Shown: positions 9,787-39,379 of the stretch, one piece after another | Numbering within the stretch: the stretch's first letter is position 1 | Layout of the letters: the number at the start of each line of letters is the position of its first letter | Assembly (NCBI GenBank): GCA_034430595.1 | Contig: DAOUEL010000078.1 | Coordinates: 141,160 to 205,159 of the forward strand | Direction of reading: 5' to 3' | Length of the DNA: 64,000 bases | DNA from: Anaerolineales bacterium | Lineage (GTDB): Bacteria > Chloroflexota > Anaerolineae > Anaerolineales > E44-bin32 | Position numbers and translations under genes: made by a program | The notes under the pieces: generated by a model | Told to the model about the DNA's origin: nothing | Database searches by the model: none | What the model saw: only the letters and a program-made list of their open reading frames with translations

Positions 9787-11679
9787 ATGGCGAAGATTAT
9801 AGGTATAGATCTGGGCACGACGAACAGTGTCGTAGCTGTTATGGAGGGTGGCGACCCGACGGTAATCCCTACCGTCGAGGGCGGTCGTCTGTGTCCTTCG
9901 GTTGTCGCATTCAACAAGGGCGGCGAACGAATGGTGGGCCAGACCGCCAAGCGCCAGGCCGTTGTCAACTCCGAAAACACAATCTACTCGATCAAGCGCT
10001 TTATCGGCCGCCGCTTCGACGAGGTCGAGACCGAGCGCGAGATGGTGTCCTACGAAACAACCGAGGGCCCCAGCGGTGACGTTCGGGTGAAGATTCCTGC
10101 CACGAACAAGGAGTACACACCGCAGGAGATCTCGGCCATGATCCTGGCTAAGCTGAAAAGCGATGCGGAATCGTACCTGGGCGAGCCGATCACGAAAGCG
10201 GTCATCACCGTCCCGGCCTACTTCAACGATTCGCAGCGCCAGGCCACGAAGGATGCCGGAAAAATTGCCGGTCTCGAGGTGATGCGCATCATCAACGAGC
10301 CAACGGCTGCTGCGCTGGCGTACGGGCTCGATAAACAGGAGAACGAGACCATCCTGGTCTTCGACCTGGGTGGTGGCACGTTCGATGTGAGCCTGCTCGA
10401 TGTTGGTGAAGGTGTGGTCGAGGTTAAGGCGACCAACGGCGATACCCACCTGGGTGGCGATGACTGGGATCAGCGCATCCTGAGCTGGATCGCCGACGAA
10501 TTTAAGAAAGAACAGGGTATCGATCTGCGTGCCGATCGACAGGCGCTGCAGCGGCTGCGCGAGGCGTCCGAGAAGGCCAAGATCGAGCTCTCGACGGTAA
10601 CCGAGACCGAGATCAACCTGCCGTTCATCACCGCTGATGCCTCCGGCCCGAAGCACCTGCAGATGAAGCTGACACGGGCGAAGTTTGAGCAACTGACCGA
10701 AGACCTGGTCGATCGCATTCGCGGGCCGTTCGAGGCCGTCCTCAAGGACGGTAACGTAAAGACCAACGAGATGGACGAGGTGGTGCTGGTCGGTGGTGCG
10801 ACCCGTATGCCGATGGTGCAGGAGCTGGTACGCAACATGACCGGCAAAGAGCCTCACAAGGGCGTCAACCCGGACGAAGTTGTCGCGGTTGGCGCCGCCA
10901 TCCAGGGCGGTGTGCTGGCGGGCGAGGTGAAGGACGTCCTGCTGCTCGATGTCACGCCGCTTTCGCTCGGTGTCGAAACTCTGGGCGGCGTCATGACGAC
11001 GCTGATCGAGCGCAACACGACGATCCCGATCGAGAAGACCGAGGTCTTTTCGACCGCAGAAGATAGCCAGACAGCGGTCGACATCCATGTGCTGCAGGGT
11101 GAACGGCCTATGGCGACTGACAACATGACCCTGGGCCGCTTCCGGCTGGAAGGTATTCCGCCGGCGCCGCGCGGCGTCCCGCAGGTTGAAGTGACGTTTG
11201 ATATCGATGCCAACGGCATCCTTAACGTGACGGCCAAGGACCGCGCCAGCGGCAAGCAGCAGAAGGTGACGATCACCGCCTCCACCAACCTGGACAAAGG
11301 TGACGTGGAGCGGATGGTCCAGGAGGCCAAGTCGCACGAGGCCGATGACAAGCATCGGCGTGAACTGGCCGATGCCCGCAACGCAGGCGATACGCTGGCC
11401 TACCAGGCCGAGAAGACGCTGCGTGAGCTGGGGGACAAGGTCCCGGCGAGTGATCGATCACAGATCGAATCGAAGATCGCCGACCTGCGGCAAGCGCTGC
11501 AGGGTGATGACCTGGCCGAGATCAAGCGCCTGACTGAAGCCGTGCAGCAAGCCAGCTATGCACTGAGCCAGCAGCTCTATGCTCAAAACGCACAGCCGGA
11601 GGAACAAACCAATGGCGGCAGCACTCCTGAAGGTGAAGATAAAGGTGATGTCGTTGAAGGCGAGTTCCGCGAAGCCTGA
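9787..11679 (+). CDS. dnaK: Chaperone DnaK (Hsp70)
   Basis: [46 protein letters not shown]. Confidence 0.99.
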
Positions 11680-11818: not shown

Positions 11819-11848
11819 TTGAACGGGGTTTCTCGCCCGGGCTATAAT
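11819..11848 (+). promoter_or_regulatory. Sigma70-like promoter for ilvE
   Basis: TTGAAC-N18-TATAAT about 70 bp upstream of a GTG start with RBS AGGAGGT. Confidence 0.55.
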
Positions 11849-11918: not shown

Positions 11919-12866
11919 GTGACGCTCCCCAAGTTTGCTTACTTTCAAGGCAAGATCGTCCCCTATAGTGAAGCAAAAGTCGGCGTCATGACCCACGCGT
12001 TGAACTACGGCACCGGCGCGTTTGGAGGCGTACGGGGATATTGGAACGAGGAACACGAGCAGCTTTACGTATTCCGTCCCGCTGATCACTACACGCGGCT
12101 GTTAAATTCTGCCAAATTATTGGCAGCCGAGATCAATTACACGATCGAAGACCTGACACGCATCACGCTTGAGTTGGTCCGGAAAGAAGGCTACAACGAG
12201 GACATCTATATCCGCCCCTTGATCTACAAGGCGGACGAGATCATCGGCGTCAAGCTGCATGGCTTGCGTGATGAATTAACCATCTTCGCCGTTCCGTTTT
12301 CGCGTTACATCGAGAAGGATGACGGAGCGCATGTCACGTTCTCGTCCTGGCGTCGGATCGACGACAACGCTATCCCGGCGCGCGGCAAACTCACCGGAGC
12401 CTACATTAATTCGGCGTTCATCAAGACTGACGCGGTGCGTTCCGGTTTTGATGAGGCGCTGGTGCTGAACAACGACGGGCATGTCTCGGAAGGCAGCGCC
12501 ATGAATTTCTTCATGCTGCGTGATGGCGTACTGATCACTCCACCCGTGACAGATAATATTCTGGAAGGCATCACCCGCCGCTCAATCATGACGCTGGCCG
12601 AACAGGAATTAGGCTTGACGGTCAAGGAACGCTCAATCGATAAAACCGAAGTCTTCTTATGCGAAGAAGCCTTCCTGACCGGCACCGCCGCCCAAGTGAC
12701 AGCTGTCACGATGGTCGATCATCGACCGATCGGTAATGGTGTCATGGGACCGGCGACGACCCGACTGCGCCAGATTTTTGATGATGTTGTACGCGGCCGC
12801 GTCCCGCGTTATAAAGGTTGGCTCGAGACGGTATATGTGACCGAGACGGCGATGAGCATAAAATGA
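11919..12866 (+). CDS. ilvE: Branched-chain amino acid aminotransferase
   Basis: HALNYGTGAFGGVRGY, GKLTGAY (PLP Lys), EGSAMNFF, ILEGITR, GTAAQV; GTG start. Confidence 0.95.
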   Translation: MTLPKFAYFQGKIVPYSEAKVGVMTHALNYGTGAFGGVRGYWNEEHEQLYVFRPADHYTRLLNSAKLLAAEINYTIEDLTRITLELVRKEGYNEDIYIRPLIYKADEIIGVKLHGLRDELTIFAVPFSRYIEKDDGAHVTFSSWRRIDDNAIPARGKLTGAYINSAFIKTDAVRSGFDEALVLNNDGHVSEGSAMNFFMLRDGVLITPPVTDNILEGITRRSIMTLAEQELGLTVKERSIDKTEVFLCEEAFLTGTAAQVTAVTMVDHRPIGNGVMGPATTRLRQIFDDVVRGRVPRYKGWLETVYVTETAMSIK

Positions 12867-12942: not shown

Positions 12943-13845
12943 ATGGAATACCATCCTCCGCGATCGGCCGGACTGGCAATCGATCTCTTTGCAATTTTCG
13001 CACTGCTGACAGCAGCGCTGTTCGGATTGATTCAAGTCTCACGCGCCTCACTCTCCCTCTTAACCGTGCTCTGGATCCTGCTGCCGCTGCTCGGGGTGCC
13101 GCTGAGTTTGTTCTTGCTCTATGATCTCTATGGCCTGTTGACCGCACGCTACCTCCTCGACCGGGATGGACTGCGGGTGCGCTGGGGTTGGGCCGTCGAG
13201 CAGCTGCCAATCGGGAAGATTCGCTCCATGCGAGCTATTGGCCGGCAGGAAGGCTTATCGCTGCTTGCAAGCGGGGTGCGCTGGCCTGTGACTACGGTCG
13301 GATCCTCGCAGTCGGAGGGCGGGGCAAAACTTGATTACTTCCTGGGACTGGGAAGCGAAGATCTGGTGCTGGTCGAAGGAGACGGCCGTATAATTCTCCT
13401 CTCCCCGGTGACCGCGGCCGGATTTCTCGAGACCTACCAACAAGCGACAATGCTCGGCTCGCTGCAGCCGATGCAGGCCCTATCCCAGCGCCCGCGTTTT
13501 GCGGTGATGGAGCTTCTGGCTGACCGAGTTGGGCGACTGCTCCTGCTGGCTGGAATCGCGCTTCCTCTGATCCTGCTTGGCTATCTCGCTGTGCGCGTCC
13601 CCGATCTGCCAGCCCAGGTCCCCTTCGGCTTCAATCCTCAGGGATTGCCGGAGACGTTCGCTCCGCCCGGGCGGCTGCTGCTGCTGCCGCTGATAAGCAG
13701 CCTATGCTGGTTGTTCAACTTCAGCCTTGGGTTGTGGTTGTACCGCCAGCCGGCGCAGCGGCTGCTTGCCTACGCACTCTGGATGGCCTCAATCATCGTT
13801 GGGCTTTTATTCTGGGGGGCAATGCTCCACCTGTTGAGCGCCTGA
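12943..13845 (+). CDS. Membrane protein with bacterial PH-like domain and C-terminal DUF1648-like TM hairpin
   Basis: TM pair, YLLDRDGLRVRWG, LPAQVPFGFNPQGLP. Confidence 0.65.
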   Translation: MEYHPPRSAGLAIDLFAIFALLTAALFGLIQVSRASLSLLTVLWILLPLLGVPLSLFLLYDLYGLLTARYLLDRDGLRVRWGWAVEQLPIGKIRSMRAIGRQEGLSLLASGVRWPVTTVGSSQSEGGAKLDYFLGLGSEDLVLVEGDGRIILLSPVTAAGFLETYQQATMLGSLQPMQALSQRPRFAVMELLADRVGRLLLLAGIALPLILLGYLAVRVPDLPAQVPFGFNPQGLPETFAPPGRLLLLPLISSLCWLFNFSLGLWLYRQPAQRLLAYALWMASIIVGLLFWGAMLHLLSA

Positions 13846-13851
13846 CGGATT

Positions 13852-13903
13852 TTATCCACAGCTGCCGTTGGATTATCCACAGGTTTCTTGCGGGTTATCC
13901 ACA
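13852..13903 (+). promoter_or_regulatory. Cluster of three perfect DnaA boxes
   Basis: TTATCCACA at 13852, 13873 and 13895, same orientation, in an 82-bp intergenic gap. Confidence 0.8.
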
Positions 13904-13927
13904 GCCTGATCACACGGAGTCCACAAT

Positions 13928-14704
13928 TTGCTGTATCAAGGCCTGATTCTGGGCTTTATCATCTCAGGCATCGCCTACGCCGCTGGCGCGCTCTCTGGCA
14001 GCGGAATGGTCGCCGCCGGGCTATTGGGTGGAATTACGTTCGGCCTGGGCGGTCTCCCCCCTTCCCTGCTGCTGCTGTGGTTCTTCCTGAGCTCAAGCCT
14101 GCTGACCCGCCTGTTCCATAAAAGAAAAAGGGCTGTCAACCTCGAGTACGCCAAGGGTGGCCCCAGAGACCTGCCCCAGGTCCTGGCCAACGGAGGTGTC
14201 GCCGGGGTGGCGCTTGTGGTCTATGTCCTGGGAGGTCTGCAGCCAGCGCAATACGCGTTTGTCGGGGCGCTGGCGGTGGCCAATGCCGACACCTGGGCGA
14301 CAGAGTTGGGCGTACTCTCGCGCCGTCTGCCTCGCTTGTTAACGAATGGAAGACAGGTCCCTGCTGGAACCTCGGGTGCGGTGAGTGGGGTGGGATTTAT
14401 CGCCGCTCTCGCAGGTGCGGGGACGATCGCGTGCCTGGCTGGCTGGCTCTTTGCGGATCTGTGGCTTATACCCGCGGCGATGATAGCCGGATTTCTGGGC
14501 TCTGACCTGGATAGTTATCTTGGCGCATGCTGCCAGCGGGTCTATTATTGTCCTGCTTGCCAGAAAGAAACCGAAAAGCACCCGCACCATTCCTGCGGAG
14601 CGGCGACCGAGGTGTTGCGCGGTCCCGCCTGGCTGGGTAACGATGCGGTTAACGCGCTGGCAACGCTGCTTGGAGCAGTGCTTGCGGCTGTGTTCATGCT
14701 CTGA
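13928..14704 (+). CDS. DUF92 (TMEM19-like) membrane protein
   Basis: GGPRDLPQVLANGG, ADTWATELG, VPAGTSGAVS; TTG start. Confidence 0.88.
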   Translation: MLYQGLILGFIISGIAYAAGALSGSGMVAAGLLGGITFGLGGLPPSLLLLWFFLSSSLLTRLFHKRKRAVNLEYAKGGPRDLPQVLANGGVAGVALVVYVLGGLQPAQYAFVGALAVANADTWATELGVLSRRLPRLLTNGRQVPAGTSGAVSGVGFIAALAGAGTIACLAGWLFADLWLIPAAMIAGFLGSDLDSYLGACCQRVYYCPACQKETEKHPHHSCGAATEVLRGPAWLGNDAVNALATLLGAVLAAVFML

Positions 14705-14731: not shown

Positions 14732-14935
14732 ATGGAAGGAAGCCGTGAACAGATCAGGCGACTTCTAAAGACGTTCGGCATCGAGGCAGACGAGGCTATG
14801 ATCGCCCATGTTGCCCGACTGCCCGGGAAGAAAGCGCTCCGCATCCGGCTCGTCCTGGACGATCTTACCGACTACGGTACGAACCCGCCGGAGATTCCGC
14901 TGCACCTCGAGATCGAGGGAGTGATCGAAGGCTGA
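14732..14935 (+). CDS. Small hypothetical protein (67 aa)
   Basis: GGAGG RBS ahead of ATG 14732; SREQIRRLLKTFGIEADEAM helix; lies between two same-strand genes. Confidence 0.65.
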   Translation: MEGSREQIRRLLKTFGIEADEAMIAHVARLPGKKALRIRLVLDDLTDYGTNPPEIPLHLEIEGVIEG

Positions 14936-15007: not shown

Positions 15008-16261
15008 ATGCCGAATGCTGATGTGCTCGGATTGATCCTCGGAGGAGGCCGCGGCTCGCGCTTGTGGCCATTGACCAAGCTGCGGGCGAAACCTGCCGTC
15101 CCCATCGGCGGGAAATACCGCCTGGTCGACATTCCGCTCAGCAACTGCCTCAACTCAGGGATAAACCGCATCGCGGTCATGACCCAGTTTAATTCCGTAT
15201 CGCTGCACCGCCATATCACGCAAACCTACAACTTCGATCTCTTTCACTCCGGTTGGGTTCAAATCCTGGCTGCTGAGCAGACTCTTACCAGTCATGATTG
15301 GTACCAGGGAACAGCCGACGCCGTTCGCAAGCAGATGTCCGAGATCGAAGTGACCGGTGCGCGGGACGTGCTCATCCTGGCCGGCGACCATCTTTACCGC
15401 ATGGATTACCGCGATATGATCGAGCGCCACCTGCAGGCGGAAGCCGATGTCACGGTGGCCGTCAAGCCGGTTGCGCCGCAAGAAGCGGGGCGCTTTGGCG
15501 TTCTTAAACAGGATCAGGATGGCCGCATCACCGCCTTCATCGAGAAGCCGCAAGAAGAGTCGGTCCTGCAGGCGTTTGCCAGCCGCCCGGACGAAGCGCG
15601 CCCATATTTGGGCTCGATGGGTATCTACATCTTTAAAAGGGACGTCCTGGCTGAGCTGCTCGAATCCGAACACGACGATTTCGGTGGGGATGTACTGCCG
15701 GCGGCGATTGAATCACACCGGGTGTTTGGCTATTGTTTCGATGATTACTGGGAGGACATCGGCACAATCGAGGCTTTCTACCGCGCCAACCTGGCGCTGA
15801 CCGAGGCAGTACCGCCCTTTAGCTTTCATGACCCGGTAAGCCCGATTTACACCCGGCCGCGCTTTCTACCCGGTTCCCGCATCTATAACGTATGTCTCGA
15901 TCGGGTCAAACTAGCGGATGGCTGTGTCATCGAGGGCGCCGAAATTCAGAACGCGGTTATCGGTATCCGCAGCATCATCTCGGAAGATGTCATTCTGCGC
16001 GATTCGGTCATGATGGGAGCCGACTACTACGAGGGCGAACGGGAGCAGGTTCAACCTGACGTTCCTCCGATTGGGATCGGGCGCGGCTCTCGCATCGCCG
16101 GCGCCATTATCGATAAGAACGCTCGCATCGGGGCCGGCGTGGTCATCGAGCCGCACTACGGCCAACCTGATGTTGATACCGAATCATGGTCGATTCGCGA
16201 CGGGATCGTTGTTATCCCGAAGCACGCCGTCGTTCCCGCAGGAACCGTCCTCGTTCCTTAA
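15008..16261 (+). CDS. glgC: Glucose-1-phosphate adenylyltransferase
   Basis: ILGGGRGSRLWPLTKLRAKPAVPIGGKYRL, WYQGTADAV, ILAGDHLYRMDY, YWEDIGTI. Confidence 0.97.
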   Translation: MPNADVLGLILGGGRGSRLWPLTKLRAKPAVPIGGKYRLVDIPLSNCLNSGINRIAVMTQFNSVSLHRHITQTYNFDLFHSGWVQILAAEQTLTSHDWYQGTADAVRKQMSEIEVTGARDVLILAGDHLYRMDYRDMIERHLQAEADVTVAVKPVAPQEAGRFGVLKQDQDGRITAFIEKPQEESVLQAFASRPDEARPYLGSMGIYIFKRDVLAELLESEHDDFGGDVLPAAIESHRVFGYCFDDYWEDIGTIEAFYRANLALTEAVPPFSFHDPVSPIYTRPRFLPGSRIYNVCLDRVKLADGCVIEGAEIQNAVIGIRSIISEDVILRDSVMMGADYYEGEREQVQPDVPPIGIGRGSRIAGAIIDKNARIGAGVVIEPHYGQPDVDTESWSIRDGIVVIPKHAVVPAGTVLVP

Positions 16262-25008: not shown

Positions 25009-25350
25009 CTTGGCTCCTGGGGATAGGCGGTCGTGTCATTACAGCATAGCGCGAAACTTTCCCGCGTGCACCCGTGGTCGAAACAATGATGAGCTGAAAG
25101 GGCGGCTAATTTGCATTTGTGTCATGCTTAATCCCTGCGCACAAATCCCACATCATTCATCCTATTCAGAAGGAATGTATGGGTCTATAATTTCCGCCGT
25201 ACCGCATCACGCTCTCCCCGGTGAGGGGAATCCTGATTGCAAAAAGCTGTTTACAGAGCCAGGCCGCGCACTCACTGATCAAGGTGCGTGGCGTGCTGGC
25301 GTGGAATGAACCCGGTCCAAGGCGCTTGGGCTGGCTGCGAGGAGCGCGGA

Positions 25351-26922
25351 ATGAAGCAAAAGAATAAACGAGCACGTATCATCGCCTGGGGGTTAGCGAT
25401 CCCCGTCATCGCCGTCAGCGTGACCAAGGCGATTGTCAGTTTGACTGGACAGCCAGCGCTCGATGATCCGGTCGAAGTCCTGGGCTGGGGATTGACGCTT
25501 CCATTGGCGTTTTCGGTGCTGGCGGCGTTGATCATCGCCCGCCAACCCGGCAACCGGGTCGGATGGCTGATGATGATCATCGGCTTGTCGGGCGGATTGA
25601 GCAACATGAATGACCTTGTGCTGGTGTCTTATACTTATTCACCTCCGGAGCATCTGACCCTGGGCTTGTGGTTGATACTGTACCTGCACAACGGAGGTTG
25701 GGTATTTTCGTTCTTCCCTCTCTTTCTCATCCCGCTTTATTTCCCGACTGGCAATCCCCCCTCGCCGCGCTGGCGCTGGGTCGCTTGGCTCGCACTGGGG
25801 ATGGTGCTGACCTTTGTTGTGCTGGGAGCCTTTTTTGAGAACTTCGAGACCTCGAATTGGACGATCCCCAACCCAATAGGCGTCATCCCGGCTAGTTTCT
25901 GGGAAGGCGGTTTCATGCTTCTCTGGACAGTCGGTCTGCTCGTGGTTGTTGCCGGCTCCGTCGCTTCGCTGTACATGCGTTATTGGGGAGCGGGCAGCGG
26001 TGAACGGCAGCAGATCAAGGTGCTGCTTTTGGCGGGCGTGATGTTCGCAGTCTTTTATTCACTGGTTGCACTCTTCTTCTCAAATGCGGAGGGCGGTTTT
26101 AGCCTCCTGGCCAACTTGCTTTTTTTTCTCACCATTCTGGGCATCCCTGTGGCGATCGCAATTTCCATCTTCCGCTACCGGCTGTGGGACCTGGACGTTG
26201 TGATCAACCGGGCGCTGATCTACGGCCCACTGACGACCCTCATGGCGGGCACATTCGCCATGGTGATCGCGCTGACGACTGAGCTCACGAAAGAGGCGCT
26301 CGGCGACCAGTCGAAGGCGCTTGGGGCGGCGATATCAGCCGTTATCGTGGCGGTTGTCTTTCAACCACTTCGCAGCCGGATTGAAGATTTCGTTGATAAG
26401 CGCTTTTACCCCCAGAAGCTCGACCTGGCATCCGGGTTGGTGGAGGTGATGCCCGAATACTGGAGCTTTCTCGACCGCGAGACGCTGATGGAATTAGCGA
26501 TGGAGCATGTGAGGAGCGTGCTCGGCACCGAGCATGCGGCTTTCTACCTCGCCACCGGCCCGGACCGCTTCCAACTGGCCAGTCAGCTGAACGGTGCCGC
26601 GCGAGAACATCCTATGATCATGCTTTCGAAGAAGCAGCACGAAGAGCTGCAGAAGAAGCGCGTTGTTGCCAGCGAGGGCATGGCTAACCTCGCCGGACAC
26701 GTGCCGCTCTTCATCGACCGCGGGAAATCGAACGAGCTGCTCGGCCTGCTTTCGGTTGGTTCCCGGGCGAGCGGCAAGGGCTATTCAGGGGATGACCTGA
26801 AGGGGCTGGTCGACTTGGGGAACAAGATCGGCCTGGCGCTGAACGCCATCCGCATGGCCGAGAAGCGGAAAGCGTCCGAATCGCCCTTGACGACTCCTAA
26901 CGCTGCCGTCGCACAGTTGTAA
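25351..26922 (+). CDS. Multi-TM sensor-like protein with C-terminal GAF-like domain and no output domain
   Basis: RQPGNRVGW, FPTG...SPRWRW, NPIG, ERQQIK, IFRYRLWDLD, then GAF-like LGLLSVGSR...YSGDDL; ATG 25351 after GAGGAG. Confidence 0.75.
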   Translation: MKQKNKRARIIAWGLAIPVIAVSVTKAIVSLTGQPALDDPVEVLGWGLTLPLAFSVLAALIIARQPGNRVGWLMMIIGLSGGLSNMNDLVLVSYTYSPPEHLTLGLWLILYLHNGGWVFSFFPLFLIPLYFPTGNPPSPRWRWVAWLALGMVLTFVVLGAFFENFETSNWTIPNPIGVIPASFWEGGFMLLWTVGLLVVVAGSVASLYMRYWGAGSGERQQIKVLLLAGVMFAVFYSLVALFFSNAEGGFSLLANLLFFLTILGIPVAIAISIFRYRLWDLDVVINRALIYGPLTTLMAGTFAMVIALTTELTKEALGDQSKALGAAISAVIVAVVFQPLRSRIEDFVDKRFYPQKLDLASGLVEVMPEYWSFLDRETLMELAMEHVRSVLGTEHAAFYLATGPDRFQLASQLNGAAREHPMIMLSKKQHEELQKKRVVASEGMANLAGHVPLFIDRGKSNELLGLLSVGSRASGKGYSGDDLKGLVDLGNKIGLALNAIRMAEKRKASESPLTTPNAAVAQL

Positions 26923-26987
26923 GTTCAGTACCACCCGCCACCGAGGGTGGAGTCCACGAAGGCCAGGGAAGAACCCCTCTTGCAGCT

Positions 26988-27311
26988 TTATTCCTTATAC
27001 AGGAGCAGCAGCATCGTCACCGGGGTGCGGGCGCGCACGCTGTGCGGCAGGCGGGCCGGCATGCGAACCCACGTGCCGGGTGCGGCTGTGAGTTCATCCT
27101 CGCCGAGCTTGAGGTCGGCCTCGCCTTCAATAAAATGCAGAATCGCGGGCTGCGAGGCGGTGTGCTCGGAGAGCTCCTGGCCGGTGGCGAAGGAAAAGAG
27201 AATCGCCTTCAACCGATCGTCTTCAAAAAAGGTTCGGCTTAGAATCGAATCGGACGGAACGTCCGGGGCAAGGTCGTCGATTTTTTCGAAGTACGTATAG
27301 TCTTGGCTTAT
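26988..27311 (-). CDS. Cupin-domain protein, probable non-canonical ATA start
   Basis: GQELSEHTA...G...MPARLPHSV cupin motifs; coding-like frame extends 33 codons above TTG 27212 to ATA 27311, with an in-frame TAA just upstream. Confidence 0.75.
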   Translation of the reverse strand: MSQDYTYFEKIDDLAPDVPSDSILSRTFFEDDRLKAILFSFATGQELSEHTASQPAILHFIEGEADLKLGEDELTAAPGTWVRMPARLPHSVRARTPVTMLLLLYKE

Positions 27312-27420
27312 GATCCCTCTTCTCCCGGCTGATTAAAATGAACAGAAGTCATGTTCTCGAGCAGGCATTCCAAAGCGCCTACCCCGGCTAATGGCAATCT
27401 GAACGTCTCACAGGCAAGCA

Positions 27421-28002
27421 TCAGGGAGCGAACGGTCCGAGGACCTGCTGAAGCCAGGTGTCAAACGCGGCCGGCGCGAGTGCTTCAAATCCCCCCAGGA
27501 ACAGGCAGCTAAGGCCAGCCAGAACCACCAAGACGCCGAGAAATCGCAGCGGTATGTGAAGCAGCGCCTGCCATACACTTGTGTTCCAGTCCGGCGGTCC
27601 AAGCGCCATCCCGGTTCCGAGTCCGCCCAGGAGCAGTGCGGCTACTACCAACCCGGCGGCCGGATGCTGTTTCAGGTACTCCAGGAAGGACGCGTCAAGC
27701 CCGAAAGTCCGCAGCAATCCAATACCGAAGAGTGAGACCCCCAGAACGAAAACTGCAAAACCCCAGGGAACGGCAGCCGGGCCGAGGTAGGGGGAGCCTT
27801 CGCGGAAGAACTCAAGTACGCGCACCCGGCGGGTGGTGAAGGCGCCCAACCCGCTCAGGCTCAGGCCGAGGCCGAAAGCGAGCATACAGGCGGTGTAGAG
27901 CCACGGCCATTCGAACTGGCTGGCACCGACCAGCATCAGCAGCCCTAGCGCGAGGGCTCCGGTCTCAATCCATTTCAAACGCTCGAAGAATGTCTCTGTC
28001 AT
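27421..28002 (-). CDS. Small multi-TM membrane protein (194 aa), last gene of the secreted-protein cluster
   Basis: 5-6 hydrophobic segments; start 7 nt after the stop of the 999-aa gene. Confidence 0.75.
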   Translation of the reverse strand: MTETFFERLKWIETGALALGLLMLVGASQFEWPWLYTACMLAFGLGLSLSGLGAFTTRRVRVLEFFREGSPYLGPAAVPWGFAVFVLGVSLFGIGLLRTFGLDASFLEYLKQHPAAGLVVAALLLGGLGTGMALGPPDWNTSVWQALLHIPLRFLGVLVVLAGLSCLFLGGFEALAPAAFDTWLQQVLGPFAP

Positions 28003-28009
28003 CACCTGC

Positions 28010-31009
28010 TCACGGATTGGAGGCCGGCATCTGGGTGCTCCAGCTGGTCTTCGAGACGCAGGGCAGTCCAACCGTCTGATTATCGGCGCCCAGGGTCAGG
28101 AAATAGGGGCCACTCATGTTAAATGTGGCCTGTGATCCGTAGTAAAGCAAGTGCCACTGGCCTACGTCAAGTTCGGTGTATCCGGCGATGATCGTGCCGG
28201 GCGGCGATTGCAGGTCAGGCGAGAAGCCCGCCGGCGGGTTCCACGGTGAGCGGTCGAGCAGGATCGGGATAGTCATCGATGCGCCCGGATCGAGCGGCGG
28301 GATGTCCAGGCCGACTGCCTCGAAGAGCTGCCCTTCGATGTTCTCCCCGCCGATGGCGTTTGTCGCGTGGTTGTACACCGAGAGACCGCAGCGCTCGATA
28401 TCGGTTTTGGGGATCCCCGCTGTCTCGATCCGCCGGCTGACGCGCACTGTGAGCACGGCCGGCTGGACCGAGGCGAGTGGGTGCGGTTCCCACAGGTTGA
28501 AGGCCGTCTGGCCCGACTGCCCAAAGGGGCCGATGTCGAATGAGTCCGTGCCCGCTTTTAGGTTCTGCTTGATCACCGCCTCGCAGTCCTGGTCGCAGGG
28601 TATGCCCTGGCTGTTGAGATAGTCGGCAGCCTGCTGAGCGGCATGGTTCAGCGCCTGGTCGAGGTACTTCCCAGCGTCGAGGTCGCCCTTGACGGCATCC
28701 TTGACGATGCCCTTGCACAGATCATCGCAGTTGACGCCGTGCTTCTGCAGTTCTTCCTGGGCCAGCTGCAGGCCGTAATCCAGGCCCTCGTTGACCAGCT
28801 TGTCGGGATGCGCCAGCAGATCGAGGCCTTTGCGGATGGAATCCTGACACAGTGGGTCACAGCCGGTCACCTCGGAGATGGCAGTCTGGACCGCGTACTC
28901 GAGGCCCTGGTCCAGCAGTTGATCGAAATTTGGCAGTTCCGGAGGGATGCCAAGATAGGCAAGCCCGATATTGACCCCCAGGTTGATGGCAGCCTTGCAG
29001 GTGTCCTTCGCGTCGCCCGAGAACGCGGAACAGCCGATATTTCCCACGAAGTCGACCACGGCGTTCTTGAGGTTGTTATAGGTCTTGGCCACCCAGCTGA
29101 AGAAGTCCTTGACGAGCCCGCCGAGGGTATCGAGCCCCTTCTGCAGGTGGCAGGCCAGATTCCAGCCGCAGCCGCTGTCGGAAGACTTGCAGGTCACACC
29201 CGGACAGCCGCAGGAAAGAGAACCGGCCGGGAGCAGCGTGGTGCATGTGAGCTCAGGTTCGCTTGGGGAACTGTTAGGGTTGATGCTGTTCAGGATGTCT
29301 TCGAAGCTCTTCGTCCCTTGCTGGCTGCACTGCTGCAGCGGCTTGGAGAGCACCATGCAGGAGGCATAGCTCGGGTCAGCCGGACGGTAGGGCTGGAATC
29401 CAATCACCTGCACGTCATAGAGCGGGCCAGTCTCGGCGTTGACTGGAATCTGCTCCGGAGGCCCATAGCGAACGATCACCGTATTCGATGGTTGGAGCAG
29501 TTTTCCACCCTGGGCGATCGGGATGACACGGATGTAAAAAGTTGTCGGAAGCAGGCTGTTGATGTCCGTCAAGCGTTGGATCTGATTCTGCAGTGATTCA
29601 ATAGCTTGCTGGATAGCATTAAATGGATTGCTTGAAGGTGCCTGCCCTTCGGGGAAATCGATGTACTTCGAAAAATCAACCGAGAATTTTGCCGGAACAA
29701 GTTTGGTTTCCGAGGCTGGAAATGGAAAGCCGGATTTCTTCGTAACGTACTTTGGAGGCGATGTTTTTCCAGTGGCGATGACATCCGGCGTCCAGAACAG
29801 GCCCGATTCAAAGGGCTTGGTTGAAACCTGCCAGATTCCCGCATTGATGCTGCCTTCGAGCGAGGACCAGCGAAAGACCTGGTTATAACCCTGGAAGTAG
29901 CCTTCGATCGGGCTGGGGATCGTCCACTCGCTAACATAGCTGGTCTGGTTACGAATCGTGCCGATAATATCCAGCCGGGTTGTCGTGAGTGTACCCAGAA
30001 AGGCATAGGCCTGGTTCTCACCGAGAACGCCCCCTTGGCGGCCCAGATAAACCAGTTGTCCACCGTTCCAGCCCCAGGCTTCAGCCTCAAAGGGCGTGGG
30101 TTTGGGTAAATTCGTAAGCGCGTCAGGAGGGATGAGGCCGGCCAGGTCGTAGGCACCAGATGTTGGCTGCAGGAATGTGTTCTTGTCGCTCGGGAAGCGC
30201 AGCCATGGCCCGCCGGCAAGCGAGGCGTAGAGGTATAGCTTATCCACGGGTGACTTGGGAATCAGGATTCCATCCTTGATCACGAAACCGGGTGCGAGCG
30301 GCAGGTTCAACTGGGCCAGATTCACCTGCAGGGAGTTTGGCTGGGTGTTGTCAGCCGGCTCCGGCGTGGGCGGAAGCGGCTGCGAAGGCGGAGCCGCTGG
30401 TTGACCATCCTGCGGGCTCACAGGTGCGGAATTCGGAACCGGCACCGGGATACTGATCTCCTGGCCCAGTGCCAGCGAGGCATCAGGATCGAGACCGGGA
30501 TTTGAATCCAGGATTGCCTGCGGGTCGGTTTCGAATGCCTGAGCTAATCCTGCGACGGTCTCGCCGCCATCTGCGGTGAAAGGCAATGGAAACCGTACAT
30601 CCGCCTCTCGGATCGCGGTCAGGGTTAATGGCTCGGATTGTGTGATGTTGCCCTTTGTATCTGTAGCTCGCAGCAGAAATTTGTGCTGGCCCTCGCCCGA
30701 GGGCGTCCACGACCAAAACTCCTGCAGCACAGCTTCGGCCGGAGAATAATCTTTCGCCTCCCAGAGTTGATCATTGACCCATAGCTCGACCCGGGTGAAG
30801 CCAGGTGTTGAAAGACCTTCGCCGGCAATCGCGACGGTGCTGTGCAGTGGAACGGTTGAGCCGTCGGTTGGTTCAGAGAGGCTCAGCACCGAGCGGGTAG
30901 CGGCGTTGAGCTGAGCCACTTGCCAGGGTTTCCAGATCAAAAGGCCAGCTGCCAGGCCTCCGACCAGCACGACTGTGATAAGTAAGACAATCCAACGACG
31001 AGTACTCAT
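28010..31009 (-). CDS. Large surface protein: TM anchor, Ig-like domain, LysM, Pro linker, uncharacterised core with three CxxxC helical repeats
   Basis: N-terminal hydrophobic helix; Ig-like WTPSGEGQHKFLLRATD; LysM GETVAGLAQAFETDPQAILDSNPGL...LGQEISIP; core paralogous to 35324-37807. Confidence 0.85.
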   Translation of the reverse strand: MSTRRWIVLLITVVLVGGLAAGLLIWKPWQVAQLNAATRSVLSLSEPTDGSTVPLHSTVAIAGEGLSTPGFTRVELWVNDQLWEAKDYSPAEAVLQEFWSWTPSGEGQHKFLLRATDTKGNITQSEPLTLTAIREADVRFPLPFTADGGETVAGLAQAFETDPQAILDSNPGLDPDASLALGQEISIPVPVPNSAPVSPQDGQPAAPPSQPLPPTPEPADNTQPNSLQVNLAQLNLPLAPGFVIKDGILIPKSPVDKLYLYASLAGGPWLRFPSDKNTFLQPTSGAYDLAGLIPPDALTNLPKPTPFEAEAWGWNGGQLVYLGRQGGVLGENQAYAFLGTLTTTRLDIIGTIRNQTSYVSEWTIPSPIEGYFQGYNQVFRWSSLEGSINAGIWQVSTKPFESGLFWTPDVIATGKTSPPKYVTKKSGFPFPASETKLVPAKFSVDFSKYIDFPEGQAPSSNPFNAIQQAIESLQNQIQRLTDINSLLPTTFYIRVIPIAQGGKLLQPSNTVIVRYGPPEQIPVNAETGPLYDVQVIGFQPYRPADPSYASCMVLSKPLQQCSQQGTKSFEDILNSINPNSSPSEPELTCTTLLPAGSLSCGCPGVTCKSSDSGCGWNLACHLQKGLDTLGGLVKDFFSWVAKTYNNLKNAVVDFVGNIGCSAFSGDAKDTCKAAINLGVNIGLAYLGIPPELPNFDQLLDQGLEYAVQTAISEVTGCDPLCQDSIRKGLDLLAHPDKLVNEGLDYGLQLAQEELQKHGVNCDDLCKGIVKDAVKGDLDAGKYLDQALNHAAQQAADYLNSQGIPCDQDCEAVIKQNLKAGTDSFDIGPFGQSGQTAFNLWEPHPLASVQPAVLTVRVSRRIETAGIPKTDIERCGLSVYNHATNAIGGENIEGQLFEAVGLDIPPLDPGASMTIPILLDRSPWNPPAGFSPDLQSPPGTIIAGYTELDVGQWHLLYYGSQATFNMSGPYFLTLGADNQTVGLPCVSKTSWSTQMPASNP

Positions 31010-31090
31010 AAGTGTCTCCAGATCCCTGCCTGCAACGAAGGGTCGCTATCTAAACTCGAAAACCGGTAATGAAACCCATCGGCTCGGACA

Positions 31091-31993
31091 TCACCTGATC
31101 ACAGGCACGGTCGGCGTGACGGTCACCAGGATCATCGGCGGCAGAATGGTGATGGCATTGCAGCGCGCAAGCTGCAGGTCGGTGTAGACCGGGCTGCGCA
31201 CGAGTTCACCCTGGTTGGGCTGCAGCGCGAACTGGTAGTGCACGATGCCGCCGTCTCCGCCAAAGCCGCTCGTGCGTGCCAGGCTGTCACCGGTCTTCGT
31301 AATAGCGAAGGCCCCGTTGCCCTGAACGTTCATCGCTTCACCCTGGGACCAGGCAGTTTGCTCGCCGCTGGCCGCGTCCTCCACCCGGTAAAAGAACACC
31401 ACCACCTTTACCCCGCCGGCGGCACTGGCGCTGGCATGGAAGGTGACCTGCGCCGGGTCGCAGCTCGTCCCGCCGAAGTACACCCGCCCGGTGGAGAGCG
31501 GCAGGCCGGCAATACCGCCTGGCAAGGATGTTGAGGTTGGCGTGGGCGATGGGCTGGCGGTCGGCGTAGGGGTTTCTGTGGGACCGGTCGTTGGGGTTGG
31601 CGAGGGTGTGGCGATATCACCAACTGTAACTACGACCTGGGATGGATCGCTCCAGTTGCCATCGCCGTCCTGGGCGCGTACGGCCAATGTGTACCGCCCC
31701 GGCTCGGGCGGATGCCAGGTCCACTTGACGTGTGACAGGCGGTCGCCGGTATCGGCCGGGATTTCAGTCTCGGGCGAGGCACCGTTTACGGTGAACTCGA
31801 GTTGGGCAACCCCGGCCTGATTTGCGCCGTGCGCGATAACCTCCTGCGGGGCAAGCGGGAGCAAGCTGCCGTCGAGCGGCGCATCGATCCATGCCATCGG
31901 TCCGGTTGTGGGTGAATTGGTGCAGCTGGCGAGCAGGAGCAGTAGCCCCGGCAGAATCAAGCGAACTACTGCTGGTCGTGATGTCTTTGCCAT
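31091..31993 (-). CDS. Lipoprotein with Ig-like domain, Thr/Pro linker and C-terminal beta domain
   Basis: Lipobox LASC; WHPPEPGRYTLAVRAQD Ig-like strands; TPSPTPTT linker. Confidence 0.82.
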   Translation of the reverse strand: MAKTSRPAVVRLILPGLLLLLASCTNSPTTGPMAWIDAPLDGSLLPLAPQEVIAHGANQAGVAQLEFTVNGASPETEIPADTGDRLSHVKWTWHPPEPGRYTLAVRAQDGDGNWSDPSQVVVTVGDIATPSPTPTTGPTETPTPTASPSPTPTSTSLPGGIAGLPLSTGRVYFGGTSCDPAQVTFHASASAAGGVKVVVFFYRVEDAASGEQTAWSQGEAMNVQGNGAFAITKTGDSLARTSGFGGDGGIVHYQFALQPNQGELVRSPVYTDLQLARCNAITILPPMILVTVTPTVPVIR

Positions 31994-32316
31994 GAGCGAA
32001 CCATCCTTTGATCGAGGATTGACGTTGGCCGTGACACGAATCCATGGCCGTCACTCAATCTGCATCCTGCGGAATGAGCAATCCGATCGGTGCGCGCCAT
32101 ATCCGCACCGGTATGGCGGAATCCGGGCAATGCGGTTGTCGATGGTTGGGGGATCGATCGGCGGTCCGCGTCGTCCAAGCCTATGCGCGTTGTATACGAT
32201 AAATAAGCCCGACTACGTACGATATCAATAATATATTATGTGACAAAACCCCACTCGTGGCAAGGCGTGAATCCCCGGCGACGATCGCGCCGGTGAGATC
32301 CGGTTGCGAGCCGCGA

Positions 32317-32988
32317 TCAGGGCTGGCTGACCATGAAATTATCAAAAAGCACTTCCGTGACGCCGCTGCCCGAACCTCCAGCGCCGAAACCAACATCACC
32401 GGTAGGGATCTCGAGCTGCGCAGCATAGAGGAACTGAACGCCGTCAAGATAAACGACCATTTCCGTCCCCGTGCAGTCCAGTTCAAAGTGATTCTGAGAC
32501 GGGGCAACTCCACTGGGGAAGTCGTCAACCACGATCACCTGTTCATCTTCAAGGTAGGCGCCAATCGAAAGCATGCCATCGCCGTCGAGTTCGGCGTAGT
32601 AGTAATTTTCATTGTCCTGGTAGCGGCAGATCAGGTAGGCTCCGGCGCTCTCGGAGCCAGAGACACGTTCGGTGTCCACCTCCACCCGCACATCCCCGAA
32701 GCTGTGGCCGGATACTGCGAGCGGAAAGATGTATGGATTTTCATCCTGATCGATGCGGATACGGTATGCCCCTTCGTCATAGCCTCGAAAGTAATAGGTA
32801 TCGTCGATGGGCCAGCCGGAGCCGGGATTGGAAAAATCGTCAAAGAGAAGCACTCCGTCGGAGGAGGTTTTCGCCACCGTGCTCGGTGCTGCCGTATCTT
32901 CCGCAGGAGCTTCGTTTGAAGTTCCACAAGCCGCGCCGGCCAGGATCAATCCGGTCAGGATCAACGCGGGCCAGGATTTTCTCTTCAC
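32317..32988 (-). CDS. Lipoprotein with concanavalin A-like (DUF1080-like) beta-sandwich
   Basis: Lipobox GAAC; FDDFSN, FGDVRVEVD, GDVGFGA, FDNFMV; GTG 32988 chosen from RBS spacing (ATG 32994/33018 are alternatives). Confidence 0.78.
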   Translation of the reverse strand: MKRKSWPALILTGLILAGAACGTSNEAPAEDTAAPSTVAKTSSDGVLLFDDFSNPGSGWPIDDTYYFRGYDEGAYRIRIDQDENPYIFPLAVSGHSFGDVRVEVDTERVSGSESAGAYLICRYQDNENYYYAELDGDGMLSIGAYLEDEQVIVVDDFPSGVAPSQNHFELDCTGTEMVVYLDGVQFLYAAQLEIPTGDVGFGAGGSGSGVTEVLFDNFMVSQP

Positions 32989-33060
32989 GTGCATCCACTC
33001 CTCCATATTCATGTCCATCGGGCACCGGGATGATACCCGACGTGGGGTCGATCAACATTC

Positions 33061-35277
33061 CTAGTGGCGGTTGTATTTAATGGGTTTTGCCAATTGCCCA
33101 CCACCCAGATCGTAGGATAGATAAAGCTCGCCCGCCTTCTCATCACAGGTGTACTGTGCTGCCCCGGTCAGCCCATTTGAGAGGGAGGGTCCCATGCCAC
33201 TTAGCAGGTCACCGTCTCCAGGCACCTCCTGCCCATTGATCAGGATCTTTTGCGTCATGCTGACATTGTCGTCAAGCAGGGAGAAAATGAGGTGGTCGAC
33301 ATTGTCGTTGGCGTATTCGGCCGAACCGTCACCGGTGATGTCGAGCAGCACCTGGGCCAGCACGCCAAACCCAGAGCCGCCGCCGGTTTGATCCAGTTCG
33401 TAGGCCACGAAGTAGTTGTACTCTCCGGTGACGACCGACTGCTGTGTAAACTCCAGGCGCCAGACTCCACCCATGCTGTCGATGCTGAAGAACCCCGGAT
33501 CGGTATTCTTGAAAGGTGCCGCTAGGTACTCGGCGAAGCTGGGCGTATCGATGTCCCACACACCAATCAGGCAGGTATCGCAGGTCGTCTGCGCGGTGGC
33601 CGGCTGGTCGACGGTAATCTCCAGTTTAACCTGGCGGGGGTTGGCAAGAATGGTACCGGTTGCCGTGAAGAGGGCGACATAGTTCGCGCAGCCCGTCTCG
33701 CGATCGACAGCGACCGGAAGCCACTGCGTGGGTGTTGGTAGTGTCCCGATCACCTGCAGCACTTCCGCGTCCGTTTTCGCGAGAGCAATATGGAACCCTT
33801 TTCCAGGCCCGAGCGAGAGCAGGTATCTGCTCAACGAAAAATCTTTCACATCGAGGTCCAGTGGCTGGCTTGCCTTGAACAGGTATGTTTCGTTGTACTG
33901 GATCTCGGTCTTGATTTGCTTCTTGTTTGAATCCACAACTTCCCCGTTAACGAAGGCCTGACCGAAGGCATGCCAGATTTGGTCGATGTTGGTATAACCG
34001 CTCAGTGCTGCAATTTGCTCGGCCGCACCTCCCGATGTGGGCAACAGGGAAATCAAACTCAGGATGGCCGGGATGTCATGATCTGGGCGGTTGTTGAGGT
34101 ATTGAAAGAAGAGGTACGCCTCGTAGCTCATCTCGACGATCGGCTTGTAGCGCGAGTAGGAATTGAAGGTAGACAGCCAGCGGTGCTCCAGGTCTATCGA
34201 TGGATACACGAGATTGCTAAAGAACTCGGCCGAACCTTCCACCCACCAGTCGGATGCTTTGAGGACGACCTTTGGGACGGTGAAGTGTGTGTATTGAAAA
34301 CAGTGAAAGACCTCATGTGCGACGATCTGCTTGAAGGCCTCGGGTGTCTTGCCCAATGAAACGGGATAGAGCGCGATCGTGCAGGGATTTCCAGCCTGTG
34401 CGCCGGCCGAGTCAGCCCAGGTGACGAAATTATTCTTCTTGGGCAAATCGAGAACCGTAAAGACAAAGTTAATCGATTCCTGTGCACCGTAAGCGTTGTA
34501 GTGCTTGACGGCGGTCTGGGCTGCTTCGAAGGCCGCATCCACCCAGGGTTTCTGGGCACCGCCTTGTGATCCCCAATCGAGAGGATAGTAGAGGCGGTAG
34601 GTATTTCCGTTGAAGGAAAAATTTTGATATTGAAAACAGGCAATCGCCTTATCTTTAGGGAAACCGTCGAGAGCGAGGCTCTTGCAGTTTACCAGCAAAG
34701 TTCTGCTTGAAAGCCCGGGAGCGCGGGAAGCAGCCTGCTCAGCGGAAACGCTGTACGCATCGAGTGTCTCGGCGTCGGGGGATAGCGCCTGCAGTAAGCG
34801 CTGCAGTTCGGCAGTTGTCTGTGTATCGCCGCTCTGTTCGATATAACTGCGTACCAGACCCAGGAAACCGGTGGCCTCACCGAAGGTGACCTCGCCGATT
34901 TCCGGAACTGCCTCGGCCTCAAGCGCTCCGGCAAGGTAGCGGGTGAGAGTCAGCAGCCCCTGCTCCTGGCTCCATATTCCCGCAGCGATGTTTTGTTCGA
35001 GTAGCGCCCTGAAATCCGCCGGGAGCTCATTCGGTTCCTGGTAGGGAACCTCGAGCGGTCCTTCCAATGAGGTGGGGACAAGAGCAGAAGTATCAGCTGT
35101 GGATGACGCGGCACCGCCGTCCTGGTCCCCGGACGGACCATCAGAGGCTGCGCCATGCGTGCCTGCAGGGCGATTGCAGCCCGCGGATAGGAGCAGCACG
35201 AGCAGGAATGCTCCAATCATTGGCAGGATACGTTGCGGCGAATTGGTTTTCCACAGCTTTGGGCTGCTACGCTTCAT
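33061..35277 (-). CDS. Lipoprotein zinc metallopeptidase (HEXXH+E, gluzincin-like) with C-terminal beta domain
   Basis: Lipobox SAGC; AHEVFHCFQ followed by WWVEGSAEF; GGAG RBS. Confidence 0.8.
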   Translation of the reverse strand: MKRSSPKLWKTNSPQRILPMIGAFLLVLLLSAGCNRPAGTHGAASDGPSGDQDGGAASSTADTSALVPTSLEGPLEVPYQEPNELPADFRALLEQNIAAGIWSQEQGLLTLTRYLAGALEAEAVPEIGEVTFGEATGFLGLVRSYIEQSGDTQTTAELQRLLQALSPDAETLDAYSVSAEQAASRAPGLSSRTLLVNCKSLALDGFPKDKAIACFQYQNFSFNGNTYRLYYPLDWGSQGGAQKPWVDAAFEAAQTAVKHYNAYGAQESINFVFTVLDLPKKNNFVTWADSAGAQAGNPCTIALYPVSLGKTPEAFKQIVAHEVFHCFQYTHFTVPKVVLKASDWWVEGSAEFFSNLVYPSIDLEHRWLSTFNSYSRYKPIVEMSYEAYLFFQYLNNRPDHDIPAILSLISLLPTSGGAAEQIAALSGYTNIDQIWHAFGQAFVNGEVVDSNKKQIKTEIQYNETYLFKASQPLDLDVKDFSLSRYLLSLGPGKGFHIALAKTDAEVLQVIGTLPTPTQWLPVAVDRETGCANYVALFTATGTILANPRQVKLEITVDQPATAQTTCDTCLIGVWDIDTPSFAEYLAAPFKNTDPGFFSIDSMGGVWRLEFTQQSVVTGEYNYFVAYELDQTGGGSGFGVLAQVLLDITGDGSAEYANDNVDHLIFSLLDDNVSMTQKILINGQEVPGDGDLLSGMGPSLSNGLTGAAQYTCDEKAGELYLSYDLGGGQLAKPIKYNRH

Positions 35278-35323
35278 GGGTTCGTCTCCTTACTCGACAG
35301 TTCGCTCACGATGTGTGGCGGGT

Positions 35324-37807: not shown

Positions 37808-37884
37808 ATCGTCCTCCGGTGCAATCCGCACATCTATCGAGTCGGATCGGCTTGCCAAAGAATCCCGTTTTTGAATCCGTCCTG

Positions 37885-38532
37885 CTACGGCATGTGGGGA
37901 AGCGCCAGGCGGGCGATTTCCTGAGTCATGCTGAACGCCTGGTCCTGCTGATCCTCCGGGTGCCATGTGACGACCTGGAAGACCTGGTCCCCGACCCGTA
38001 CCCGCAGCAGCCCGGACATAAAGACTGCCTCGTCCCCTAGCCCGGCGACGGGGGTGGGAACCACCTCAAACATCGAAGCGCTGCTTTCGTTATCGGCCTT
38101 GAACTGGTCAGCCGTTTCATTTGTTACTTGCAGGATGATCATCTTGCCGCCAGACTGGCTGGTGAGCATACAGCTCCGGTAGGGGCCGATGCTCTCGGGC
38201 GCGGCATCCGTCGCCATAGGTTCCTCAAAGAAGCTTTCAACCTCGGCCTGGGTGAGCATTTCGCAGGGGTTGAAACCGGCCAGGATGTCATTTCCCCCGC
38301 CCGCAGGTGCTGGCGCATTGTTCTCGCTTTCCTGGGATGGTGGCAGCGCGCTTTCCGAGGCCGCAGGCGAGCTAGAGTTCTCATTGGATGGAGCCGCGGG
38401 GGCTTCTTCTTTCCCGCCGCAGGCGGAGAGCAGCGCCAGCATTAAAACCATGGCCGGGATTTGAAGCCGTAATCCGTGCCGGGAGTGGGAATCCTTCCAG
38501 AAGATAACAGGGGAATATTCGATTTTCGACAT
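37885..38532 (-). CDS. Lipoprotein, DUF3558-like
   Basis: Lipobox LSAC; NPCEMLTQAEV, SC, VAGLGDEAV pattern; ATG 38532 with AAGGAG. Confidence 0.7.
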   Translation of the reverse strand: MSKIEYSPVIFWKDSHSRHGLRLQIPAMVLMLALLSACGGKEEAPAAPSNENSSSPAASESALPPSQESENNAPAPAGGGNDILAGFNPCEMLTQAEVESFFEEPMATDAAPESIGPYRSCMLTSQSGGKMIILQVTNETADQFKADNESSASMFEVVPTPVAGLGDEAVFMSGLLRVRVGDQVFQVVTWHPEDQQDQAFSMTQEIARLALPHMP

Positions 38533-38648
38533 CGGTTGACTCCTTGTCTGTGTTTGTTTGTTTTGTTTTCTCTGTTGCAGCAGCCGACGTATGGAGGGGG
38601 CTCTGGGTGGTCGCATACGGCAGGCGTGGAAAACCAGTCCTCCCTCGA

Positions 38649-39368: not shown

Positions 39369-39379
39369 CTCTTCAGCCT

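Follow-up and report, generated by a model that had tools for sequence, protein, structure and literature searches.

What is the role of a row of perfect DnaA boxes that lies away from any dnaA gene, in the 82-bp spacer between two genes for membrane proteins of an Anaerolineales bacterium? We addressed this question in a 64-kb stretch of one contig, hereafter the window, and in related loci from other genomes and metagenomes. The window contains three exact copies of the 9-mer TTATCCACA and no more, each on the plus strand, with start-to-start distances of 21 and 22 bp, so that the three copies extend over 52 bp of the spacer (Table 1). Dinucleotide shuffles give an expectation of 0.19 exact copies per 64 kb against the three observed, and none of 100 shuffles reached three. 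A degenerate fourth box ends 2 nt before the start codon of the downstream DUF92 gene and overlaps its Shine-Dalgarno-like sequence. Our recount of the window agrees in these respects with the initial annotation, which had reported three exact 9-mers at 21 and 22 bp in one orientation, a degenerate fourth copy at 13917 over the ribosome-binding site of the DUF92 gene, and an arrangement very unlikely to arise by chance. Box 3, the candidate weak site CTGATCACA and box 4 follow one another with 2-bp gaps throughout, two of these three sites being weak; the strong boxes are separated from each other by 12–13 bp. A recent tandem duplication was ruled out as the source of the array, given that the sequences between the boxes are unrelated to each other and that Tandem Repeats Finder gives no hit.

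Table 1. Features of the array and of the genes around it, in window coordinates
Feature	Position	Strand	Remarks
dnaK	9787-11679	+	Part of the co-directional string
Promoter-like TTGAAC-18-TATAAT	11819-11848	+	Ahead of BCAT gene; consensus scan, the better match
Class IV aminotransferase (BCAT)	11919-12866	+	Pfam, gene calls
Promoter-like GTGACC-16-TAAAAT	12837-12864	+	Ahead of bPH_5 gene; consensus scan only
Membrane protein with bPH_5 and DUF1648 domains	12943-13845	+	Upstream of array; Pfam
82-bp intergenic spacer	13846-13927	+	Holds the entire array; bPH_5 stop to DUF92 TTG start
DnaA box 1, perfect TTATCCACA	13852-13860	+	Sequence match
DnaA box 2, perfect TTATCCACA	13873-13881	+	Sequence match
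DnaA box 3, perfect TTATCCACA	13895-13903	+	Sequence match
Candidate weak in-phase site CTGATCACA	13906-13914	+	5/9 positions; 2-bp gaps to boxes 3 and 4
GGAG, Shine-Dalgarno-like, DUF92 gene	13916-13919	+	Overlaps box 4; 8 nt before TTG start
Degenerate box 4, GAGTCCACA	13917-13925	+	6/9 positions; 22 bp beyond box 3
DUF92/TIGR00297-family integral membrane protein	13928-14704	+	TTG start; downstream of array; Pfam 6.4e-64
67-aa ORF (orf67)	14732-14935	+	Called in all related contigs
glgC, glucose-1-phosphate adenylyltransferase	15008-16261	+	End of the co-directional string; NCBIfam equivalog NF002772, 564 bits; Pfam

Judged by its sequence, the repeat matches the general DnaA consensus exactly. 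Substitutions among the boxes follow the same motif. In an alignment of 55 boxes from 17 arrays, which were chosen by similarity and phase and are therefore counted with a bias toward the consensus, CAC at positions 6–8 is invariant, T4 is retained in 54 boxes and A9 in 53. Changes are concentrated at positions 1, 2, 3 and 5, as the relaxed DnaA consensus TTWTNCACA would allow. Position 10 is occupied by G in 37 of 54 boxes; several E. coli DnaA sites bound in vivo likewise carry this G and read TTATCCACAg (PMC11317965). The 12–13 bp gap between strong boxes fits one extra 9-mer with 1–2 bp on each side. Across 36 such spacers the best box match within the gap averages 4.5 of 9 positions, compared with 3.59 ± 0.15 in shuffled sequences, and none of 2000 shuffles scored as high; with five of the lineages being related, this is suggestive only of weak sites between the strong boxes. 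Elsewhere in the window, two near-boxes with one mismatch each start at 47462 and 47486 (region 47462–47494), 24 bp apart, within the first 45 nt of an sbcD-like gene. They were dismissed, coding being the probable explanation: the second one encodes part of the D-I-H-I-G stretch of the protein.

Conservation in close relatives, a check put forward with the initial annotation, was examined in five lineages: the window, L006, L007, L011 and L008. Their DUF92 proteins are 86% (L006), about 70% (L007 and L011) and 58% (L008) identical to that of the window, and the gene order is kept. The spacer measures exactly 82 bp in all five, whereas other intergenic spacers of the same loci differ in length among the relatives. 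Within it, 31 of the 36 alignment columns in boxes are invariant, as against 7 of the 46 columns outside them. Boxes 2 and 3 are invariant at all nine columns, and box 1 at seven, with TTATGCACA, TTTTGCACA or TTCTGCACA as the variants in relatives. Box 4 maintains a TCCACA or TTCACA core at an unchanged position in every one of the five lineages, and the overlapping GGAG or GGAA is also kept. The boxes thus persist while the DNA between them drifts—pairwise identity of the non-box spacer DNA ranges from 39 to 78%—and in the alignment the 9-mers together with their spacing form a clear phylogenetic footprint. Loss of the boxes in close relatives, which the initial annotation had named as a refuting outcome, is thus not what is seen; their retention speaks for an element of DnaA boxes that is under selection outside oriC.

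The array is not restricted to these close lineages. A DUF92 protein scan over one genome per GTDB species yielded 80 Anaerolineae-type loci, and 13 of the species representatives carry same-strand arrays of two to four boxes at 20–22 bp spacing (L011, L016, L021, L022, L024, L034, L039, L043, L051, L058, L060, L062 and L070). The array is located at the bPH_5/DUF92 junction in 12 of the 13, L021 being the exception. Further carriers at this junction are the close lineages L006 and L008 and, among the matches listed, the metagenome contigs L114 and L154; about 18 Anaerolineae lineages have same-strand arrays at 20–22 bp spacing at the bPH_5/DUF92 junction. Conservation between the same flanking genes, which the initial annotation had also named as a check, is therefore found in deep lineages of the class, where identity to the window is only ~50% for DUF92 proteins and ~30% for bPH_5 proteins. 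All boxes lie on the plus strand in every carrier lineage. TTWTNCACA boxes no more than 60 bp apart form 23 pairs in 1.32 Mb of related sequence, and every one of these pairs is part of the array. The carriers found are MAGs or metagenome contigs throughout, and the array is absent from relatives belonging to three cultured genera: Bellilinea (L044), Leptolinea (L033 and L036) and Brevefilum (L019, L047 and L076). Carriers group together in a neighbour-joining tree of DUF92 that also holds about 55 other lineages without the array. Such a distribution is what vertical inheritance followed by losses would produce, and the grouping of the carriers points to an array passed on vertically.

The position of the array relative to its flanking genes varies among the carriers. 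In the clade of L034, L039, L043 and L070 only 5 nt separate the end of the last box from the ATG of DUF92, and this distance still holds in L039 with 260 bp inserted 5' of the array. The array is 260 bp away from the bPH_5 stop codon in L039; in L062 the distance is 120 bp. In several lineages the stretch from the last box to the ATG is devoid of a Shine-Dalgarno sequence. L024 and L114 have kept the array by the bPH_5 stop codon, and DUF92 is about 330 bp away; L114 has a hairpin between the array and DUF92, and L024 has a TATAAT near the start of DUF92. L021 carries a perfect triple array behind the bPH_5 stop codon, with DUF92 8 kb off, past an IS630 fragment. Two identical 12-nt spacers are found at this locus (L021:2020–2660), followed by the fragment of the IS630-family transposase, and one lone box is located upstream of DUF92; the identity of the spacers suggests a recent unit duplication that kept the number of boxes. 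Other repeats occupy the same junction in some lineages. In L069 (3343–3420) three copies of TATCCCACA and a degenerate TATCCCAAA at 11–12 bp spacing take the place of TTATCCACA at 21–22 bp. The bPH_5–DUF92 spacers of the array-lacking L028, L055, L017, L035, L065, L067 and L084 often contain other short repeats, for example acgcagtacgcaatacg units or ccttcaacc-type units, some of them as inverted repeats.

In the window the array is embedded in a co-directional string of genes: dnaK, BCAT, the bPH_5 membrane gene, the array itself, DUF92, orf67 and glgC. The DUF92 protein also matches NCBIfam TIGR00297, with a score under the curated cut-off. The plant phytyl-phosphate kinase VTE6 is presumably a member of the same family; a literature search on DUF92 and VTE6 gave nothing usable. 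The product of orf67 is 68–94% identical among relatives in the clade of the window and has no family match in Pfam or NCBIfam. The bPH_5 and DUF92 genes are adjacent in nearly all of the 80 Anaerolineae loci, and the gap between them is mostly <60 bp, so the pair looks operon-like. The near-universal pairing of bPH_5/DUF1648 with DUF92 implies a functional link between these two uncharacterised membrane proteins. Consensus scans of the 82-bp spacer found no promoter-like site on the plus strand and no terminator-like site. The promoter-like site ahead of the bPH_5 gene is a possible source of transcripts crossing the array. An antisense promoter built from two of the boxes on the minus strand (TGGATA-18-GATAAT) was rejected, as the window and L006 alone, of the lineages compared, have the flanking base that it requires. 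Farther along the window, positions 25288–39400 hold large ORFs of 544, 999, 738, 880, 243 and 239 aa with little or no family assignment, the 999-aa ORF having a single LysM match only; the minus strand encodes all but the 544-aa ORF.

The array is not a replication origin. It does resemble oriC in being a cluster of DnaA boxes, three exact ones accompanied by weak ones. GC skew is positive on both of its flanks, and the cumulative skew climbs across the whole window. In the local sequence of 14 array loci, the flanks have skew of equal sign in 11, the other three having either a value near zero on one side or a short flank, and the sign at the array differs between lineages. There is no AT-rich tract: among 40-mers up to 400 bp away the minimum is 40% GC, reached around the DUF92 start in a locus of 59% GC, and in other GC-rich relatives the corresponding minimum is 42–50%. 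No repeated 3-nt trio pattern was seen on reading the array sequence. Pfam scans of about 48 window ORFs detect neither dnaA nor dnaN, and a tblastn search with E. coli DnaA finds nothing in the window and no DnaA homologue within 10 kb in any of about 90 related loci. Neither gene is found in about 7 kb past each window end, which extends the surveyed DNA of the source organism to about 80 kb in total. The initial annotation had already noted the lack of dnaA and dnaN and of an obvious AT-rich unwinding element in the window, and both statements stand. Its suggestion of an atypical origin does not: skew inversion is lacking in the window and in 13 related loci, there is no unwinding element or nearby dnaA, and the array lies inside an operon-like string, and for these reasons we reject an origin. 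Despite the perfect phased cluster and a like architecture beside dnaA in other phyla, it is extremely improbable that an element of only 82 bp, which has co-directional genes on both sides and which most relatives lack, serves the source lineage as chromosomal origin, be it whole or as half of a bipartite one.

The exact geometry of the array is widespread. A metagenome scan for three perfect TTATCCACA boxes at 21–22 bp returned at least 120 stretches (L091–L210), and such three-box arrays are present in at least 119 viral contigs of IMG/VR (L217–L296 and onward). About 15 of the metagenome arrays, among the matches listed, adjoin a DnaA homologue by tblastn, four of which were confirmed by Pfam. 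In L157 (1260–1460) nine same-strand boxes with a period of 21–22 bp lie directly upstream of a dnaA gene recognised by Pfam; the named proteins most similar to its product are from Firmicutes (Clostridiales and Defluviitaleaceae). The proteobacterial-like contigs L121 and L160 have a phased triple and AT-rich DNA directly downstream of a Pfam-confirmed dnaA, and the layout is the same in L170 and L177 beside dnaA homologues seen by tblastn only. These oriC-type arrays share the motif, the single orientation and the 21–22 bp period with the array of the window. They differ in being longer (5–9 boxes), in flanking dnaA and, in L121, L160, L170 and L177, in having AT-rich tracts; the array of the window has neither dnaA nor such a tract. 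The phased arrays beside dnaA show that the geometry occurs where DnaA action is expected. A literature search found nothing on DnaA boxes spaced by helical turns.

By its sequence features the array is closest to the non-origin DnaA-box clusters of Bacillus subtilis, and next to the DnaA operators of E. coli. In B. subtilis eight intergenic regions outside oriC stably bind DnaA, for example yqeG-sda, ywlC-ywlB, yydA-yycS and gcp-ydiF (Ishikawa et al. 2007, PMC2533591). These clusters have 4–8 boxes at average distances of 3.7–21 bp and are partly conserved across Bacillus, and the same study proposes both titration and gene regulation as their function (PMC2533591). Like the array, they are short, intergenic, composed of consensus and near-consensus boxes, kept in relatives and adjacent to genes that may be regulated by DnaA. 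The box distances overlap as well, the array having 12–13 bp from edge to edge, and the array too is conserved at the same gene junction in relatives. Boxes with at most one mismatch to TTATNCACA are fewer in the array, three in the window and three or two in relatives compared with the 4–8 of the Bacillus clusters (PMC2533591, Table 2), box 4 and CTGATCACA having 3–4 mismatches to the box consensus. The array also differs in phylum, in its unrelated flanking genes, in its strict phasing and single orientation and in its position inside an operon-like string, and DnaA binding, observed for the Bacillus clusters, is a prediction for the array.

The operators of the E. coli DnaA regulon at dnaA, nrdD, polA, purH and mioC consist of double boxes 2–3 bp apart (Stringer, Fitzgerald and Wade 2024, PMC11317965). 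They share the extended motif TTATCCACAG with the array, and in both cases the site closely precedes the start of a gene. Toward the 3' end of the array, box 3, CTGATCACA and box 4 obey the 2-bp rule of these operators, two of the three being weak. By contrast, the strong boxes of the array are 12–13 bp apart, and the putative targets are DUF92 and glgC rather than nucleotide or replication genes. In E. coli, datA, DARS1 and DARS2 are non-coding DnaA-box clusters off oriC whose position is conserved among relatives (PMC4585315). The array is likewise non-coding, away from oriC and conserved in position, but has no sequence homology to either datA or DARS. A datA-type site is origin-proximal, contains an IHF site between its essential boxes and stimulates the hydrolysis of DnaA-ATP, whereas DARS sites reactivate DnaA by release of ADP. 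No match to the IHF-type site WATCARNNNNTTR occurs within 3 kb of the array, although this consensus may not be the preference of Chloroflexota. The DARS core has three boxes of opposed orientation, unlike the boxes of the array, all of which are co-oriented. The initial annotation had proposed a datA-like or DnaA-regulated element; what remains of this proposal is a selected DnaA-box element outside oriC, and a strict datA or DARS identity is unsupported because of the missing IHF-type site and the uniform orientation of the boxes.

The explanation that we consider probable, if by a modest measure, is that the array is a non-origin DnaA-box cluster that blocks transcription into DUF92–glgC depending on its occupancy by DnaA and at the same time serves as a DnaA sink. 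Its predicted composition is three high-affinity boxes and one or two weak ones, in one orientation and two helical turns apart. With a period of 21–22 bp the strong boxes all face the same side of the helix, where several DnaA molecules could bind next to each other. E. coli DnaA in vivo favours boxes paired 2–3 bp apart and leaves a lone perfect box empty (PMC11317965), so the 12–13 bp between the strong boxes of the array needs explaining. The strong boxes might act as anchors, and the weak in-phase sites in the gaps would then fill at high DnaA-ATP. A complex of this kind would cover the DNA from the bPH_5 stop codon to the DUF92 start codon and could form a roadblock or operator against read-through of RNA polymerase into DUF92-orf67-glgC, while the bound DnaA would be kept off the origin. 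Control of read-through is favoured by the lack of a promoter or terminator in the gap, by the frozen length of 82 bp and by the last box standing 5 nt from the ATG in the L034/L039/L043/L070 clade. Persistence of the array apart from DUF92 in L024, L114 and L021 counts against this explanation and fits a DUF92-independent role. Both DnaA binding and an effect on transcription are what we infer from the sequence, and titration and gene regulation may both apply, as the two are not mutually exclusive. A more far-reaching version, in which the array is the Chloroflexota counterpart of datA/DARS—a dedicated and deeply conserved DnaA-ATP-sensing locus of alternating strong and weak in-phase sites that would time initiation and gate an operon for envelope lipid (DUF92) and glycogen (glgC)—is doubtful. 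If true, it would be the first replication-control locus defined in Chloroflexota.

The evidence for DUF92-independent persistence bears most directly on a purely titrating role, in which the array would be a site of the DnaA cycle, similar to datA or to the Bacillus clusters, that binds DnaA and perhaps alters its nucleotide state, with a merely historical gene position and no real effect on expression. Such a site could be expected to survive with DUF92 at a distance, as in L024 and L114 (about 330 bp) and L021 (8 kb), or apart from the bPH_5 stop codon, as in L039 (260 bp) and L062 (120 bp). The unit duplication suggested by the identical spacers of L021 would have preserved the number of boxes, and the array is the sole box cluster in the 1.32 Mb of related DNA. 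Conserved clusters without a clear gene-regulatory role exist in B. subtilis, for instance downstream of gcp (PMC2533591). Titration alone is harder to reconcile with a length of 82 bp and distances to the stop and start codons that are frozen in five lineages in which other spacers vary, or with a last box that abuts the DUF92 start in several lineages. The capacity of only 3–4 boxes is small, and the closest match to the IHF-type consensus is 3.5 kb off. We therefore regard this reading as unlikely, though clearly one to be reckoned with.

The geometry of the repeats also recalls operators of other regulators with a DnaA-box-like site, for example response regulators of the LytTR type, which bind 9-bp direct repeats set 12 bp apart and for which a G at position 10 matters (PMC2766830). 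The array has the geometry of LytTR operators of the AgrA, ComE and SilA type: 9-bp direct repeats, spacers of 12–13 bp and a frequent G at position 10. Its repeat, by contrast, matches the DnaA consensus exactly and shows the pattern of variation of DnaA boxes. The GTT core typical of LytTR sites is missing from it, and there are 3–4 repeats abutting a start codon instead of two at a –35 element. Pfam scans of about 48 window ORFs reveal no gene for a LytTR or other regulator near the array, and identically phased arrays flank true dnaA genes elsewhere; an operator for a LytTR-type or other non-DnaA regulator is accordingly quite improbable. Even less credible is an RNA-level element in the bPH_5–DUF92 transcript controlling the translation of DUF92. 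Repeats on the sense strand that extend into the ribosome-binding region would suit it, as would the lineages without a Shine-Dalgarno sequence between the last box and the ATG. The predicted fold, by contrast, is about as stable as that of shuffled sequence (z = –0.77), the alignment fold shows no compensatory changes and there is no Rfam match. The 21–22 nt period corresponds to two turns of the DNA helix and would indicate binding on DNA.

Replication control is, to our knowledge, little explored beyond a few model phyla, and we know of no DnaA-regulatory site described for Chloroflexota, a limited literature search having found nothing relevant. What appears to be new in the array is its phylum, its gene junction, the strict two-turn phasing in one orientation and the depth of its conservation. 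It offers a clean and testable candidate: an 82-bp fragment with three perfect boxes, held at one junction between proteins that have diverged to 30–50% identity. The array bears on how DnaA engages boxes two helical turns apart, and the same question applies to arrays of like spacing in origins, phages and plasmids. Several of the metagenome matches look phage-like, with lysin-type genes or a pyrimidine-dimer glycosylase close by. In L149 (10782–10832) a three-box phased array starts 5 bp past a gene for a 715-aa Prim-Pol/AAA_25 protein of primase-helicase type, which suggests the origin of a mobile element. The number of boxes in some of the metagenome arrays is very high: L158, L125, L142 and L208 have very long arrays, and L115 (493–1350) has up to 25 boxes at a strict period of 22 bp.
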